Origin: a virus
Lineage: Duplodnaviria; Heunggongvirae; Uroviricota; Caudoviricetes
DNA length: 6,522 bases
Virus record (IMG/VR): IMGVR_UViG_2534681912_000007
Strand: one strand, 5' to 3'
Shown here: piece after piece, positions 1 to 6,522 of the stretch
Position numbering within the stretch: position 1 is the first letter of the stretch
How the letters are laid out: the number at the start of each line of letters is the position of its first letter
Translations under genes and position numbers: made by a program
Notes under the pieces: generated by a model
Told to the model about the DNA's origin: nothing
Database searches by the model: none
What the model saw: the letters and a program-made list of their open reading frames with translations, nothing else

Positions 1-80
1 TCATATTCGCCCTGACTTTCCAGAACCATACGGACTGCCCGTTGACGGACTTCAGGGGAAAAACGAGTATTTTTAGTCAT
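1..80 (-). CDS. IS3-family transposase OrfA, N-terminal 26 codons (5' partial in window, continues past position 1)
   Basis: The reverse complement of 1..80 translates without a stop to MTKNTRFSPEVRQRAVRMVLESQGEY. A Shine-Dalgarno-like AAGAGG/CAGG lies just upstream of the ATG. This N-terminus is recalled as characteristic of the IS629/IS1203-type OrfA helix-turn-helix protein. Confidence 0.7.
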   Translation of the reverse strand, partial: MTKNTRFSPEVRQRAVRMVLESQGEY

Positions 81-134
81 CCTGTTTACCTCTTTCTCAG
101 GAAGTTTAGTCTCCAGGATTCCCGGGGCGGTTCA
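1..134 (-). mobile_element. Left end of an IS3-family insertion sequence (IS629/IS1203/IS3411-like), partial; continues beyond window start
   Basis: Read on the minus strand from 134, the sequence is TGAACCGCCCCGGGAATCCTGGAGACTAAACTTCCTGAGAAAGAGGTAAACAGG followed by ATG at 80. It has the TG... terminus typical of IS3-family inverted repeats and matches my recollection of the IS629-group left end. The ORF that follows encodes MTKNTRFSPEVRQRAVRMVLESQGEY, recalled as the OrfA N-terminus of this IS group. Exact element identity needs an ISfinder comparison. Confidence 0.7.
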
Positions 135-330
135 GATATTTATTCCATGCCTCCAGCAACGATCTTTCTTCCTCCGTTGCGATTTCCAGATCTACAGCAT
201 CCTGCAGTGGCGCAATATACTCACTGAATTCCTGGATGTAGAACTGTGTGGTGACGGTCTTCCAGCCATTCGGCTCCTGCTGTATCGAAGCATACCAGGC
301 TATTTCAATATCGCTATGCTGCGGCAGCAT
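106..330 (-). pseudogene. Remnant of a second tail fibre assembly gene (tfa-like C-terminal domain), 5'-truncated and 3'-interrupted by the IS insertion
   Basis: The 74-aa ORF contains [29 protein letters not shown], closely matching the C-terminal part of the intact Tfa at 1110..1694 ([29 protein letters not shown]). There is an in-frame stop immediately upstream of the Met at 331..333. The IS terminus begins inside codon 66 at position 134, so the last 8 residues (NRPGNPGD) and the stop at 106..108 are encoded by IS sequence. Confidence 0.7.
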
Positions 331-338
331 TTAACCCC

Positions 339-367
339 TTGTAATTCATCGCCATAATTGATTTAAT
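339..367 (+). promoter_or_regulatory. Putative sigma70 promoter for the methyltransferase gene (-35 TTGTAA 339..344, 17-bp spacer, extended -10 TGaTTTAAT 359..367)
   Basis: Hexamer matches to consensus read directly from the sequence, in the AT-rich region upstream of the + strand ORF. An alternative pair is TTGATT 358..363 with TATAAC 381..386. Prediction only. Confidence 0.25.
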
Positions 368-386
368 TCACAAATAAAACTATAAC

Positions 387-1055
387 ATGGTGAAATCAAT
401 GAAAAAAAACACAGATGATGGGGCTAAAATTTACACACCACTTACCCTAAAGCTTTATGACTGGTGGGTTTTGGGAGTATCAAATCGGCTTGCATGGGGA
501 TGTCCTACAAAGGAACACCTTCTTCCACACTTTCTGGAACATGTAGGTAACAACCATCTGGATATTGGTGTTGGAACTGGGTTTTACCTTACTCACGTAC
601 CTGAGAGTAGTCTGATATCTTTAATGGATTTGAACGAAGCTAGCCTGAACGCGGCATCTACAAGGGCTGGGGAATCAAAAATTAAACATAAAATTAGCCA
701 TGATGTTTTTGAACCTTATCCCGCGGCGTTACATGGTCAATTTGATTCCATTTCCATGTTTTACCTTCTTCACTGCCTGCCTGGAAATATATCTACAAAA
801 AGCTGTGTAATACGCAATGCGGCGCAGGCCTTAACTGACGATGGAACTCTATACGGAGCCACAATTCTTGGCGATGGAGTTGTGCACAATAGCTTCGGTC
901 AAAAACTGATGCGCATTTACAATCAGAAAGGCATCTTTTCAAACACAAAAGATTCCGAAGAAGGCTTAACACATATACTCTCAGAGCATTTCGAGAATGT
1001 TAAAACCAAGGTTCAAGGTACTGTAGTAATGTTTTCCGCTTCAGGGAAAAAATAG
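387..1055 (+). CDS. Class I (Rossmann-fold) SAM-dependent methyltransferase, substrate unknown; moron-like cargo gene
   Basis: 222-aa ORF convergent to tfa. Motif I LDIGVGTG at aa 58-65, acidic post-I residue in LISLMDL (D81), motif II FDSISMFYLLHCLP at aa 119-132 and motif III LTDDGTLYGATIL at aa 149-161 give the canonical MTase order. No DNA-MTase catalytic motifs ((D/N/S)PP(Y/F) or PCQ) are present. The start may instead be ATG 399 (MKKNTDD...), which has GGTGA at 389..393 as a Shine-Dalgarno with 5-nt spacing. The gene is visibly AT-richer than the flanking tail genes. Confidence 0.75.
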   Translation: MVKSMKKNTDDGAKIYTPLTLKLYDWWVLGVSNRLAWGCPTKEHLLPHFLEHVGNNHLDIGVGTGFYLTHVPESSLISLMDLNEASLNAASTRAGESKIKHKISHDVFEPYPAALHGQFDSISMFYLLHCLPGNISTKSCVIRNAAQALTDDGTLYGATILGDGVVHNSFGQKLMRIYNQKGIFSNTKDSEEGLTHILSEHFENVKTKVQGTVVMFSASGKK

Positions 1056-1062
1056 CATCCAA

Positions 1063-1095
1063 CCGCAGCACGTTCTTGCTTAAGACGTGCTGCGG
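1063..1095. terminator. Perfect 11-bp inverted repeat (CCGCAGCACGT / ACGTGCTGCGG) with 11-nt loop between the convergent methyltransferase and tfa genes; possible bidirectional terminator
   Basis: Stem arms 1063..1073 and 1085..1095 are exact reverse complements. It lies 8 nt after the methyltransferase stop (1053..1055) and 15 nt after the tfa stop (1110..1112). On the minus strand the stem is followed by UUGGAUGCUAUUUUUU; on the plus strand there is no U-tract. Confidence 0.4.
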
Positions 1096-1109
1096 CATAA
1101 TCCCAATGA

Positions 1110-1694
1110 TTACTCCCTGACAGGGTTCGTAGGCCACTCAATATCAGGTGCAGTTGATGTATCAACACGGTTCAGCAACACCCGATACTTTTTCCAGGCT
1201 TCCAGCAATGAGGTTTCTTCCTCCGTTGCAATTTCCAGATCTGCAGCATCCTGAAGCGGCGCAATATGCTCACTGGCTACCTGCATCAGGTTGTTTTTTG
1301 TTTCTTCCGCCTCCCGGATCCGGAACAGTTTTTCTGCTTCCGTATCCTTCACCCAGGCTGTGCCGTTCCACTTCTGAAACTCCCCTTCCGGCGATAACCA
1401 GGTAACATTTTCCGGTAACGGACCGAGTTCAGAAATAAATAACTCGTCCCCTGACGCTACGTCATAAACCGTTTTCCCCCGATGGTCTTCAACGAGATGC
1501 CACGATGCCTCATCACTGTTGAAAACAGCCACAAAGCCAGCAGGAATATCTGGTGGTGCAATATCGGTACTGTTTGCTGGCAGACCTGTATGAGGCGGAA
1601 TATATGCGTCACCTTCACCAATAAATTCATTAGTTCCGGCCAGCAGATTATAAATTTTTATGGTCCGTGCTTGTTCACTCATTCTGAATGCCAT
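1110..1694 (-). CDS. tfa: Tail fibre assembly protein Tfa (lambda Tfa homologue, 194 aa)
   Basis: [78 protein letters not shown]... is near-identical over its full length to lambda Tfa as I recall it, with the same 194-aa length. The start ATG (1692..1694) overlaps the stf stop TAA (1694..1696) by 1 nt. Confidence 0.95.
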
Positions 1695-4600
1695 TATGCA
1701 AGCCTCACAATATAGTTAAATGCGATGTTTTTGACGGTGTTTTCCGCGTTACCCGCAGCGTTAACGGTGATGGTGTGTCCATGTGAACCAATCGCAACGG
1801 AGTGCGTATGCGCACCAATACCTACAGTATGTGCATGTGCGCCAGAACTTGCTGCAGTACCAGACAGCGAGTGGGTATGAGCACCTGCTGACTGTGTCTG
1901 AATACGTTGATAATACGATCTATAGGAAGAAGTCTCCGGGCTTACTTGATACTGTGAATTCTGGACATAAGTGAACCCACCGCCATCATAAAATGCTAAC
2001 GCAGAACCGCCGCCTCCTGGCCAACGAATACCATTACCATGAGTATGAACACCGGCAGACCCCGTAGAGCCACTCAGACTGTGCGTATGCGCCCCGGTGT
2101 TATTCGTGGATTTAGTGCCGTAATCAAACGACGATGTGGTTTTCGTCCCCAAATCCGTACTGGATGCGCTGGCGCTGTGGGTGTGCGATTTTATGCCGTC
2201 CTGTTCCTGAGACAATACGGCCCGGCCACTGGCGGGTTTGCCCTTGATTGTCCAGCCGCGCATATCTGGAATAACACCTGAAGGATAGGCAATAGCCAGT
2301 TTCGGATATGCTGCCTTATCAAACGTCTGCCCCTGCATGATTGCATAACCTGCAGGTGGTGTATCTGATGGCCACGGCAGCGGAACACCTGGCGGAAACG
2401 CTTCAATATTTGCCGAGCCGTCAAATTTTACGCCGTTAATTGTCCTTGCAGTTTGCAATTTGGTTGCTGTGCTTGCATTACCCGATAAAGATCCAGTGAT
2501 ACCACCACTCGCGTTTAATTTAGTTGCAATTGTAACATTGCCAGTATGGTTACTAATTATAAACGGCCTTAAGCTATTGTGCGTACCAAGACTGTTACCC
2601 GAATCTGTCAACATAAAATATGTGTTTGATCCATCATTTCGGATAAAGAATCCATAGTTGCCATAGGCAATACGCAGACCATTTGCTGACCTTGAAATAA
2701 CCTCACCAGCAGCAGTTAAACCACCTGAAAGAGTCCCTCCAGTTAATGCCAATGCCCCAATATTTGAAGGGGTCAATGTGATATTTGCACTACCATCAAA
2801 TGACACACCGTTAATCGTTCTGGCTGCCTGAAGTTTCGTGGCGGTCGCAGCATTACCTGTAGTGTTTTGATTACCGGTAGCGTTGACTCCAGGCAAGTTG
2901 ATATCTGCCGATCCATCAAATGCCACGCCCCCAATCTTACGTGCTGTCTTGATCTTGGTCGCAGTATCTGCGTTTCCGGTCAAATTACCAGTAACACTAC
3001 CACCAACTTTTAGTCCATTACCGATGGACACCAACCCTGATCTTAAGTTTATAGAGAATGGTCTTAATGAACCGATGTCTCCATTTTCCCCCTCCCCTTC
3101 ATTAGTCGGAATAAGATGAAGATGATCTTCGGAACGCCTAAAAATAAGGCCAAAGGCTTGGTTGAATATTCGAAGAGCATTTATCGTGCTGATTTTTAAC
3201 TGCCCTCCCATTGTGTCGCCAGTTTTTTGAACTGAACTATCTTTAACAGTTTTAACTGCCTTTGGCGTTGCCGCCAGCTTTTCACTGGTGCTGTTTGTTG
3301 CACTGCTGAGCTGTACTATCCCCTTTTTCGTCGTGCTCGCATCCTCCAGCGCCACGGCGGATGCAATATCCTCTGCCCGTTTTGCTGCTGTCTCGGCGCG
3401 CGTTGCCGCGGATTCAGCAGCAACTTTGCTCTGAGATGCAGCCGTCGCACTGCCTGCCGCCTCTGATGCTTTCGTTGTTGCTGTCGTGGCACTACCTTTC
3501 GCTGCTGACGCTTGTCTGGTCGCCTCATCTTTTGAAGCAGACGCAGATGATGCCGATGACGCCGCTGAACTGGCTGACGATGCGGCTGCCGCCTTAGAGG
3601 AAGCAGCATTGTCTGCTGAAGTCTTTGCATTTGTTTCAGAGGTTTTTGCTGCAGAAGCAGACCTCGCTGCTGCAGTGGCTTGCTCAGTGGCTTTGCCAGC
3701 CTTCGTTGTGGCTGTTGAAGCGGATGATGCGGCGCTTTCTGCCGATTTTCCGGCGGCGGTGGCACTGGCTGAGGCCTGCCCGGCACTTGTTGACGCGGCA
3801 CTGGCAGATAATGCAGCCGCTGTTTTTGAACCTGCCGCAGCTGAGGCGCTCTGTCCCGCTGCTGTTTCAGAAGACTTAGCGTTCGTCTCGGACGTTTTTG
3901 CCGCCTTCGCGGAATTTCCTGCCGCCGTTGCCGAGGAAGCTGCACTACTGGCACTTGATGATGCATTCGTTTCTGAAGATTTCGCTGCCTCTTTTGAGGC
4001 CGCCGCACCCCGTGCCGAGGTGGCAGCTTCTGACGCCTTCGTGGTCGCTGTGGATGCAGAAGTGGCTGCCGATTTTTGTGATGCTGCGGCATTCGTTTCT
4101 GACGTTTTCGCGGCACTGGCGCTGGTAGCTGCCGCGCTTTTTGATGACTCTGCAGCAGCAGCACTTTTTGCTGCTTCACGGGCCTTTGTCGATGCCGTTC
4201 CTGCGCTGGAAGACGCTGACTGAGCCGACGACGCGGCCTGTCCGGCTGACGTGCTGGCGGCACGTGCTGAGGCTGCAGCATCGGTTGCATGAGTTGCCGC
4301 CTCGCTGGCTGATGCACTGGCATCGCTGGCTGATTTTTTCGCGGCTGCCGTATTCTGTGCAACCGCGGAGGCGTTACGTGACACCTCTTCCACCATCTGC
4401 TCAAAGCGGCGCAGTGCCTCCGGTCGGACATCATCCTCCGTCATGGCACCGAGAAAATCATTCAGCGTACCTGGTCTGGAACCTTCATAGACGGTAATGG
4501 TCCCGGCATGTGAAGGCGGAAAACCTTCAACCAGCAGGGTGACGCTGTACTGGCCATGCTCAACATCCATGCTGTAACGTCCGGCTTCATCCGGATTTTC

Positions 4601-4720
4601 AGAGGCCACCGTGTTCACCACCACCGTGCTGCTGGTTCGTCTGGCCTTCAGCACAATGGTGCAGTTCTGTACTGGTTTTCCTGTGCCATCTTTAAGCACG
4701 CCAGAAATTTTTACTGTCAT
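1694..4720 (-). CDS. stf: Side tail fibre protein Stf (lambda Stf/StfR family), 1008 aa, mosaic
   Basis: N-terminus [22 protein letters not shown]... and C-terminus ...[31 protein letters not shown] match lambda Stf as recalled. It has a long Ala/Ser/Thr-rich segment with KTSETNA-type repeats, three GNAxTATK(L/I)xxAR(K/T)I(G/N)GVxFDGSA(D/N)I units and C-terminal HxH repeats. A GGTGG Shine-Dalgarno lies 6 nt upstream of the ATG at 4720. Confidence 0.95.
1766..2188 (-). other. C-terminal His-x-His repeat region of Stf (SHTHS, GAHTHS, GVHTHG, GAHTHS, GAHAHT, GAHTHS, SHGHT); putative metal-coordinating distal tip
   Basis: Seven HxH motifs in aa ~845-985, read directly from the translation. The same motif type coordinates metal ions in the T4 gp37 long tail fibre tip (established knowledge). 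Confidence 0.6.
2408..3181 (-). repeat. Internal tandem duplication of a ~95-aa shaft module within Stf (unit A aa 514-608 = nt 2897..3181; unit B aa 677-771 = nt 2408..2692), with an extra fibre-repeat unit between them
   Basis: [29 protein letters not shown]...[16 protein letters not shown]...[31 protein letters not shown] aligns without gaps to [29 protein letters not shown]...[16 protein letters not shown]...[31 protein letters not shown]. Shared positions include LRI, SLRPF, GNAxTATK, TAR and FDGSA. A third [26 protein letters not shown] unit lies at aa 621-647. Confidence 0.6.
3326..4378 (-). repeat. Coding low-complexity Ala/Ser/Thr-rich repeat region of Stf (aa ~115-465) with diverged tandem repeats at DNA level
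   Basis: The protein is dominated by A, S, T, K, E with recurring [14 protein letters not shown] and [10 protein letters not shown] motifs. Recurring nucleotide motifs such as gcattcgtttctga(a/c)g(a/t)tttcgc appear at ~3961 and ~4089, with variants at ~3618 and ~3877. The GC-rich repetitive composition creates long spurious ORFs in other frames. Confidence 0.8.
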
Positions 4721-4871: not shown

Positions 4872-5471
4872 TCAGAAACGGTATCCGATACCAACAATAA
4901 ATGCATCCGTTCGCCAGTCGCCACTACCGGAACCTTCATAAGCAAGGTCAATGGTTACGGATTCGGTCGGGTTAAACTGCACGCCAGCCCCCCACGCCAG
5001 AGACGTGTTGCTGTGGCGACCGTCATCACTTCCGGTCAGCACATCGTGCGTTTTCCCCTTGTTGTCAGTTACGCGGAGATAATCCCCGGAGAAAGTCGAC
5101 ACACGGCTGTAAGCCACACCCACCATCGCATAAGCACTGAACCATTCATTCACGCGTACAGACGGCCCCGCCATCACGCTGAACCAGCGGTTACGCACGG
5201 AATCTTCATGCCAGCGGGTATCGCTGTAATGCGTTTTTTGCTCATCCTCAGCATTGGCATAACTGAAGGACGTAACCAGCCCCAGCGCGTCCGTAAACTC
5301 ATAACGGTATTTCACGTTAATCCCCTTCAGATCATCACTGCCGGGAACATCAGTACGGGCATGAAGATACCCCGCGCTCAGTGTGGACTGATGCTCAGAC
5401 GCCCACGCAGGCGCACCAGAGACAAACAGACAGACGACTGCGGACAAAATAACAGCACAAAATTTACGCAT
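4872..5471 (-). CDS. lom: Lom outer membrane protein (Ail/Lom family), 199 aa, with Sec signal peptide
   Basis: MRKFCAVILSAVVCLFVSGAPAWA|SEHQSTLSAGYLHA...WHEDSVRNRWFSVMAGPSVRVNEWFSAYAM...GIGYRF closely matches lambda Lom as recalled. It has an N-terminal hydrophobic signal with an AWA cleavage motif and a C-terminal aromatic residue typical of beta-barrel outer membrane proteins. A GAGAGGT Shine-Dalgarno precedes the ATG at 5471. Confidence 0.95.
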   Translation of the reverse strand: MRKFCAVILSAVVCLFVSGAPAWASEHQSTLSAGYLHARTDVPGSDDLKGINVKYRYEFTDALGLVTSFSYANAEDEQKTHYSDTRWHEDSVRNRWFSVMAGPSVRVNEWFSAYAMVGVAYSRVSTFSGDYLRVTDNKGKTHDVLTGSDDGRHSNTSLAWGAGVQFNPTESVTIDLAYEGSGSGDWRTDAFIVGIGYRF

Positions 5472-5538: not shown

Positions 5539-6522
5539 TCAGCTGATACTGATGCCTGCGGTGGCTTTCTTCATCACCACAACCAGCAAATCGCTGATAC
5601 TTGCTGTGGGATACCAGCCATTTACCCACCATGCTGATACAGAAAACTCCAGCGTCATGTCGCCGCGACCAGCAGGCATATCAATAACACCACTGTAAAT
5701 CAGCGTATTATCCAGCGCGGTACGGTTATAAATTTCAGCACCGTTTTTCCGTACTATCAGGCGGCATGACGAATAAATATCGTTATTCTCCCGCTCATGT
5801 TTAGCGCCGCTGAATGCCACCGCCGGAATAACAATTTGCCTGTCAAAAGGCTGATCGTCATAAATCCTGACGGTAATGGTCCCTGATGGCCACCGCTCCG
5901 GTGCCCGGGAGTCCCGCGGAAAAGCCTTACCCACTGTTTTGACTATATCGCCTTCAATCTGGTTGGCTGACAGTTTCCCCTTAATCTGACAGTTCTCATT
6001 AATTGTGACATTGTTGAGCGTCCCGGCGTTCGCATTCACACTGCCACTGATATCTGCATTTTTAGCGGTCAGTTTTCCGTCCGGTGTCAGGGAAAATGCC
6101 GGAGGATTACCGCCGCTGGTAATGGTGGGAGCCGTCAGGCGTTTCAGGAACACGTCGTTCATGAATATCTGATCGCCCTGACCAACAAACATCGGCTTTG
6201 TGTTGCCATTCGCAGGATTAATCATCGCAATCCTGTCTGCCGCCAGCAGCACCTGACTCTGCATTCCTGCTGGCGTATTCTCAATACCGGCACCGATACC
6301 CGCAATATAAAGGCGTCCGTCCTGCATCTGCTGCAGCTTCACAGCCCACATGCTGTTCAGATTATTATTTGTATCAACCTGAACCTTCTGTATCTGCTGG
6401 ATTGCCGCACTCTGATTTTCCAGTTTTTTATTGACGGTCTGCGTGATTTCATTGCTGACATCCGTAATGGACGTCCTGATTTCAGCCAGGTCAGGCGCAA
6501 GCTGACCGTTATCAATCTGCGT
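5539..6522 (-). CDS. J: Tail tip host-specificity protein J (central tail fibre), C-terminal ~327 codons; 5' part lies beyond the window end
   Basis: The frame stays open from the window edge at 6522 ([161 protein letters not shown]...) to the stop at 5539. This matches the C-terminal region of lambda J as recalled, in the canonical J-lom-stf-tfa order. The Met at 6351 in the ORF track is internal, not the true start. Confidence 0.95.

Follow-up and report, generated by a model that had tools for sequence, protein, structure and literature searches.

What is a methyltransferase gene doing at the tail fibre end of a lambda-like prophage? We addressed this question for a window of 6,522 nucleotides, the entire stretch of Caudoviricetes DNA analysed here (IMG/VR record IMGVR_UViG_2534681912_000007), in which tfa (1110..1694), a 1,008-aa tail fibre gene (stf; 1694..4720), lom (4872..5471) and the 3' end of J (5539..6351) form a block on the minus strand. 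As the initial annotation stated, a 222-aa open reading frame (ORF; 387..1055) on the plus strand is convergent to this operon. That annotation presented the ORF as an orphan methyltransferase that was not recognised as a named characterised protein and that looked like a self-contained cassette; the former part of this description did not survive database comparison, and of the latter the reading as a movable cassette did.

Identity and distribution of the gene

The ORF product is 100% identical to WP_000240999.1, and it matches, with 100% identity over 222 aa, a protein cluster that holds 6,589 member sequences. The gene is ybcY of the DLP12 prophage, annotated in thousands of genomes, so that its description as an unnamed protein has to be withdrawn. 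In Escherichia coli K-12 MG1655, ybcY (b0562) is a pseudogene within the cryptic prophage DLP12, with 99% DNA identity to the window ORF, and the K-12 layout, tfaD-ybcY-tfaX, has the same order and orientation as the window. The profile of PHROG 2132, labelled as of unknown function, matches the window protein over positions 1-218 of 218 (4.2e-157). K-12 ybcY, WP_000240999.1 and PHROG 2132 represent the same gene as the window ORF, and the tfa-ybcY-tfaX arrangement, the spacer and the promoter sequence match as well. The difference is that the K-12 copy is broken near its start by a 2-bp deletion (window positions 401-402, within the ATG-A8 start tract), whereas the window copy is intact and resides in a prophage tail fibre region where tfa, stf and lom are still intact, the 3' end of J is present and tfaX is cut by an IS3-family element. 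As judged by sequence comparison, the window ORF is the intact form of the named, widely annotated, uncharacterised ybcY, and the sequence finding adds nothing beyond the existing annotation. A literature search covering ybcY, tfaX, b0562, the WP accession and moron methyltransferases retrieved no functional study of ybcY, which the broken K-12 copy may explain.

The ybcY ORF was found in 3,832 of 5,426 complete E. coli genomes (about 70%), and window positions 300-1110 were found in 3,839 of the 5,426 at 95% identity or more. This conserved gene, which evolves under purifying selection (see below), is among the commonest cargo genes of E. coli prophages; its substrate, once found, would inform the annotation of thousands of genomes, and its chemistry could reveal a new kind of lysogenic conversion. 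In ATCC 11775, ybcY, annotated there as WP_000240999.1 'class I SAM-dependent methyltransferase', is located at the edge of a complete lambda-like prophage beside the trp-yciGFE region. The gene also occurs in isolated lambda-like phages: full-length copies are present in 14 phage records, some with a named propagation host; in phage ev243, the gene order is J-lom-stf-(two small genes)-ybcY-tfaX-hydrolase-ompT-int. Two short contigs from metagenome-assembled genomes (MAGs) assigned to Firmicutes ('Bacillus sp.', L014, and 'Planococcaceae', L022) carry the E. coli ybcY-tfaX pair at 99% protein identity, most likely as a result of contamination or mis-binning.

A ybcY insert flanked by tfa 3'-end repeats

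Homology to tfa in both flanks, one of the original observations, was recovered by profile searches. On the right, tfa is an intact tail fibre assembly gene (Caudo_TAP, 1.9e-44; PHROG 105, 9e-101). On the left, a tfaX-type remnant of a tail fibre assembly gene (106..330, minus strand) matches Caudo_TAP over residues 31-67 (1e-10) and PHROG 2341 (2e-46). The 74-aa ORF of this remnant takes its final codons from an insertion sequence, so that the true homology starts at 135, and it is 93-96% identical to the stretch adjoining ybcY in K-12 (where it is annotated as tfaX), ATCC 11775 and phage ev243. At the nucleotide level, a direct repeat of 103 nt (135..237) is 84% identical to the 3' end of tfa (1184-1286), the right copy of the repeat that brackets the ybcY cassette; the unique insert between the two tfa 3'-end copies spans positions ~238-1060. 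In ATCC 11775 and Escherichia albertii, the left repeat extends over 227 nt with 88.5% identity and carries its own hairpin.

The left repeat and the tfaX remnant are truncated in the window at 134/135 by the end of an IS3-family element (1..134, minus strand; first ORF starting at 80 on the minus strand, MTKNTRFSPEVRQRAV...). This segment is 100% identical to sequences annotated as 'IS3 family transposase' that are present in many copies per genome, and no contiguous match to window positions 1-400 was found in complete E. coli genomes.

That the insert behaves as a movable cassette is borne out by comparison with other loci. In five of these, the alignment with the window breaks off at 1095-1101 and picks up again at 1131-1132, with different cargo in between: genes for general-stress, ferritin-like and Mn-catalase proteins in one O157:H7 strain (L094, 5717-8517) and ynaM-ydfK-pinR in another strain (L095, 5711-7467), both at the junction 1096-1131. 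On the evidence of these alignments, the gap that separates the hairpin downstream of ybcY from the tfa stop codon is a hotspot for cargo genes. The AT-richness attributed to the ORF relative to the tail genes was also confirmed, with a GC content of 41.1% for ybcY (GC3 35.9%) compared to 48.2% for tfa, 52.0% for stf and 53.5% for lom. Inserted between phage genes, bounded by tfa repeats and with 41% GC against 48-53% around it, ybcY has the placement and base composition of a moron. In common with the lambda-type morons lom, bor and ompT, it is independently oriented cargo of distinct base composition between conserved phage genes, present in some and absent from other related phages; the difference is that lom, bor and ompT encode envelope proteins with known roles, whereas the ybcY product is a predicted cytoplasmic enzyme.

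A long, repetitive stretch of the tail fibre gene rich in Ala, Ser and Thr (3150-4450; about 60% GC, strong AT skew) yields long spurious ORFs in the other frames, for example, 3316..4434 on the minus strand (372 aa) and 3486..4223 on the plus strand (245 aa). A 45-aa ORF on the minus strand (1000-1137), listed in RefSeq as the hypothetical protein WP_001309429.1, overlaps the 3' end of ybcY and the hairpin and is probably a spurious gene call.

Start codon and transcription signals

The true start of ybcY is likely to be ATG 399 (M5; 218 aa) rather than ATG 387, because each of the 25 aligned homologues starts at M5, as does the PHROG profile, and the K-12 annotation places the start there as well. 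GGTGA at 389-393 is a possible ribosome-binding site for ATG 399. A run of eight A residues follows this likely start codon immediately (399-410; ATGAAAAAAAAC), and the ATG-A8 tract may be prone to slippage.

The divergent spacer upstream (331..386, plus strand) has a GC content of 26.8% and contains two candidate sigma-70 promoters, TTAACC-16-CATAAT at 331-358, detected in a consensus scan, and TTGATT-17-TATAAC at 358-386. The promoter-like hexamers pointed out initially do not exceed the chance level, the scan having found three where 3.1 are expected; the element at 358-386 is nevertheless listed as the constitutive sigma-70 promoter of ybcY in a genomic SELEX study of K-12 (PMC3946193). 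The same study lists an H-NS site in the K-12 ybcY/tfaX spacer and reports binding of both RNA polymerase and H-NS to this spacer in vitro (PMC3946193), and the H-NS binding suggests that ybcY is silenced under laboratory conditions. If the promoter at 358-386 is used, the transcript would start 3' of ATG 387 and a few bases before ATG 399.

A hairpin (1063..1095) lies in the interval separating ybcY from tfa, which are convergent. It has two fully complementary arms of 11 nt each (1063-1073 and 1085-1095) and an 11-nt loop, exactly the stem that had been described downstream of the ORF. The computed energy of its fold, -23.9 kcal/mol (z = -5.85), was equalled by none of 200 shuffled sequences. 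There is no U-run on the plus (ybcY) strand and a better one on the minus (tfa) strand, and the hairpin is probably a terminator common to ybcY and tfa. Its interpretation as a terminator private to the cassette was rejected: relatives carry a second copy beyond tfaX, in the left repeat, so the hairpin belongs to the tfa 3'-end repeat and is common to the two convergent genes.

Fold and enzyme class

All four elements of the class I SAM-dependent methyltransferase motif set reported for the ORF are in place, namely, motif I, LDIGVGTG, at residues 58-65, D81 within LMDLN, FDSISMFYLLHCLP at residues 119-132 and LTDDGTLYGATIL at residues 149-161. Matches to the Pfam models Methyltransf_12, _23, _25 and _11 exceed the respective gathering cut-off in every case, and Pfam detected no domain other than the methyltransferase core. 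The AlphaFold2 model, built from 26 homologues (pLDDT 89.3), contains the seven-stranded sheet ending in an antiparallel hairpin that is typical of class I enzymes and resembles solved members of the class. In motif I, GxGxG, the residues G61, G63 and G65 are invariant among the 26 homologues, as are H105 and D106, and D81 is invariant across 69 sequences; D81 and D106 align with the aspartates that contact the ribose and the adenine in CysG (PMC11408123). The profile and structure searches suggested as a check on the assignment thus recovered a SAM-binding Rossmann fold with motif I, D81 and D106, and by sequence and model YbcY is a predicted class I SAM-dependent methyltransferase.

Across the 69 sequences, which extend down to 34% identity, Y24, G61, D81, H129, G157 and D189 (222-aa numbering) are invariant, and the residues that are at least 90% conserved include D25, W37, C39, H57, C130 and N186. 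From this pattern, Y24, H129 and D189 are probable substrate-site residues, as is the near-invariant C130.

Comparison with characterised enzymes located the protein within the class and did not connect it to a specific activity. None of the curated cut-offs for membership in PmtA, BioC, UbiE/UbiG, NodS or RquA was reached: the hits listed for the window protein, to the NCBIfam models of CpaM, RquA and PmtA, have only 16-18 bits against cut-offs of 175-390, and the 69 family members gave weak partial hits only (best E-value 1e-10, for BioC), most commonly to BioC, UbiE, CpaM and NodS. Searches of solved structures with the single sequence and two profiles matched nothing past the generic core, and the cluster names of distant relatives are generic only.

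A parallel at the active site comes from CysG and BelI (PDB 9FCD, 9FCE), Ca2+-dependent carboxyl O-methyltransferases of cystargolide and belactosin biosynthesis (PMC11408123). In hhalign, the ybcY family matched CysG with 96.8% probability, and H129-C130 of YbcY align with the first two residues of the His-His-Asp calcium site of CysG. The identity is, however, about 21%; the second histidine is replaced by Cys130, the metal-binding Asp191 of CysG has no aligned equivalent, Arg22, which contacts the substrate carboxylate, corresponds to V28 by its spacing from the Y-D motif common to both proteins, and CysG and BelI are encoded in biosynthetic clusters, unlike YbcY. Membership of YbcY in the CysG/BelI group was rejected on the grounds that, in the alignment, neither the metal-site aspartate nor the substrate arginine is conserved. 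Among solved structures, the best sequence match is juvenile hormone acid O-methyltransferase (JHAMT; PDB 7EBS, 7EC0; profile E-value 6.5e-6), which shares with YbcY the pattern FDxxxxFYxLHxxxx following motif IV; however, the match covers only the core, at 21% identity, and JHAMT is an insect enzyme acting on a terpenoid acid.

Capture from a chromosomal gene family

An exhaustive search yielded 1,326 cluster representatives of the ybcY family, and a scan of one genome per species identified 527 loci with a ybcY relative, the best 80 of which were kept. Copies with at least 99% identity to the window protein were confined to Escherichia and Shigella, apart from the two evidently contaminated MAG contigs, and each is flanked by tfaX. 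In contrast, no tfa was found near any copy at or below 75% identity; such copies occur in Citrobacter, Enterobacter, Klebsiella, Salmonella, Yersinia, Erwinia, Pantoea, Proteus, Pseudomonas, Xanthomonas and Dyella. The association of homologues with tail fibre regions, proposed for a survey by the initial annotation, accordingly holds for the close copies and fails for the distant ones. The chromosomal relatives are lone genes at different sites; in the 75 non-prophage loci, no partner conserved across genera was detected, with synteny observed only within genera, for example, in Pseudomonas. Because the distant copies are lone chromosomal genes without tfa, the prophage ybcY is, by its phyletic and genomic context, a captured member of this proteobacterial family. 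With such a broad chromosomal family behind ybcY, the label 'orphan' is misleading.

In Proteus, the homologue is divergent to a PAPS-reductase/DUF3440 (IbrA-like) gene and a 215-aa partner (P. mirabilis L083, 3563-5455, and other loci). This arrangement was seen in one genus only and probably reflects shared ancestry rather than a functional link.

Selection and persistence in decaying prophages

Estimates of dN/dS for ybcY were 0.19-0.20 against the copies in prophage remnants and 0.10 against Citrobacter. These values of 0.1-0.2 indicate that the coding sequence is under purifying selection, with the proviso that the estimates within E. coli are based on about 11-13 substitutions. In strains 23AR0806 (L092) and 82.0312 (L093), what is left of DLP12 after its decay reads ybcH-ompT-ybcY-tfa(pseudo)-int(pseudo)-tRNA-Arg-folD (3816-6800), such that ompT and ybcY alone are intact, and tfa and int are pseudogenes. 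At least 80% of the remnant ompT-ybcY-tfa'-int'-argU is present in 1,119 of the 5,426 genomes; the ybcY frame is open in both copies that were checked, and the sampled entries give it as a methyltransferase CDS. Homology between the remnant and the window begins at position 304, so that the spacer with the candidate promoters is retained. Judging from these loci, ybcY seems to outlive the rest of a DLP12-type prophage.

We consider it probable that the intact ybcY encodes a stand-alone, cytoplasmic class I SAM-dependent methyltransferase and that lambda-like prophages carry it as a moron at their tail-fibre/b-region end. Under this model, the two tfa 3'-end copies around the gene would allow its gain or loss by homologous recombination; ybcY would be transcribed alone, against the late operon, from the sigma-70 promoter in the AT-rich, H-NS-bound spacer, with transcription ending at the hairpin it has in common with tfa and translation starting from ATG 399. 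In the lysogen, YbcY would methylate a low-molecular-weight metabolite, a xenobiotic or a lipid-like compound, and this methylation would benefit the host cell, not the virion. A more specific scenario can be put forward tentatively, namely, that YbcY is a domesticated prophage enzyme which, along with ompT, is among the few genes kept from a decayed DLP12-type prophage and which methylates a specific small molecule derived from the gut or the host, or a membrane lipid, by means of a His-Cys, possibly metal-assisted, active site. The gene would then represent an uncharacterised family spread across Proteobacteria and fungi that escaped study because the K-12 allele is dead.

The opposite possibility, that ybcY is a neutral passenger, a silenced and functionless hitch-hiker that is common only because the DLP12-type prophage end and ompT are so and is slowly decaying, appears unlikely to us. 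The K-12 pseudogene, the truncated variants (among them one of 161 aa, represented by 445 member sequences), the H-NS site in the spacer and the neighbouring ompT, which could carry ybcY along, are all compatible with such a passenger. So is the K-12 ybcY mutant, which behaved like the wild type in an Hha-toxicity assay, the sole assay on record (PMC2408971), although this null result says little because the mutation removes a gene that was already inactive in K-12. Disruption without a phenotype, which the initial annotation had named as a potential counter-indication, is therefore on record for the K-12 copy, but it is outweighed by the purifying selection observed elsewhere. Neutral drift is further at odds with a frame that is intact where the adjacent tfa and int are already pseudogenes, with catalytic-site residues that are invariant across genera down to 34% identity, and with the retention of the family as a lone chromosomal gene in many genera.

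Substrate class and alternative functions

If ybcY is, as we favour, a functional moron, the question becomes which class of substrate its product modifies. With the modelled structure as query, Foldseek retrieved mainly enzymes that act on small molecules and lipids, and a small number of tRNA and mRNA-cap methyltransferases appear further down the list; by the model, the closest relatives in structure are O-, N- and C-methyltransferases of small molecules or lipids. The initial proposal that small-molecule, lipid/LPS, protein or RNA substrates are likelier than DNA is in line with this neighbourhood. YbcY and its relatives are best described as an uncharacterised branch of the small-molecule-type class I methyltransferases.

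A narrower reading, to which we assign a low probability, is that YbcY is an enzyme of lipid or envelope conversion that modifies phospholipid head groups, quinones or other membrane lipids and travels with lom and ompT, surface-altering cargo to which ybcY is linked. The top Foldseek hit is PmtA, a bacterial phosphatidylethanolamine N-methyltransferase of similar length (PDB 8YS9; E-value 5e-12, TM-score 0.62-0.68), and the weak hits to the PmtA, RquA, UbiE and UbiG models, as well as the match to the terpenoid-acid methyltransferase JHAMT, point in the same direction. Yet YbcY and PmtA share 15-16% identity, the 15.7 bits obtained with the NCBIfam PmtA model lie well under its cut-off of 390, Pfam recognises the methyltransferase core alone, and the Foldseek list is flat.

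Methylation of nucleic acids, whether DNA or RNA of the phage or the host, in the service of anti-restriction, epigenetic control or tuning of translation is considerably harder to reconcile with the data, and we judge it very improbable. The original statement that DNA-methyltransferase catalytic motifs are missing was correct, as neither the (D/N/S)PP(Y/F/W) motif nor the PC motif was found in the YbcY protein; with 218-222 aa, it has no extra target-recognition domain, no restriction partner is encoded near ybcY, the chromosomal homologues are lone genes, the closest structural neighbours are small-molecule enzymes, and no DNA methyltransferase was among the top fold matches listed. We agree with the initial annotation that the sequence does not separate lysogenic conversion from defence or anti-defence; nevertheless, a component of anti-phage defence or counter-defence is the least credible of the alternatives, the location of ybcY in a prophage cargo hotspot and a PADLOC-DB hit to mad2 (E-value 0.009, 12.9 bits), the sole match to a known defence system, being set against the facts that this hit does not rise above noise and is limited to the generic methyltransferase core, that no partner gene is conserved across the homologue loci, and that the homologues occur in ordinary chromosomal settings.

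Returning to the small-molecule methyltransferase that we favour, domain fusions within the family comprise one with cytochrome P450 and one with RCC1, too few to name a pathway. Among the distant members, fungal proteins such as P0147 from Endocarpon pusillum have N-terminal extensions of about 100-170 aa, and P0254 (719 aa) is the methyltransferase-cytochrome P450 fusion, a combination that fits small-molecule chemistry.
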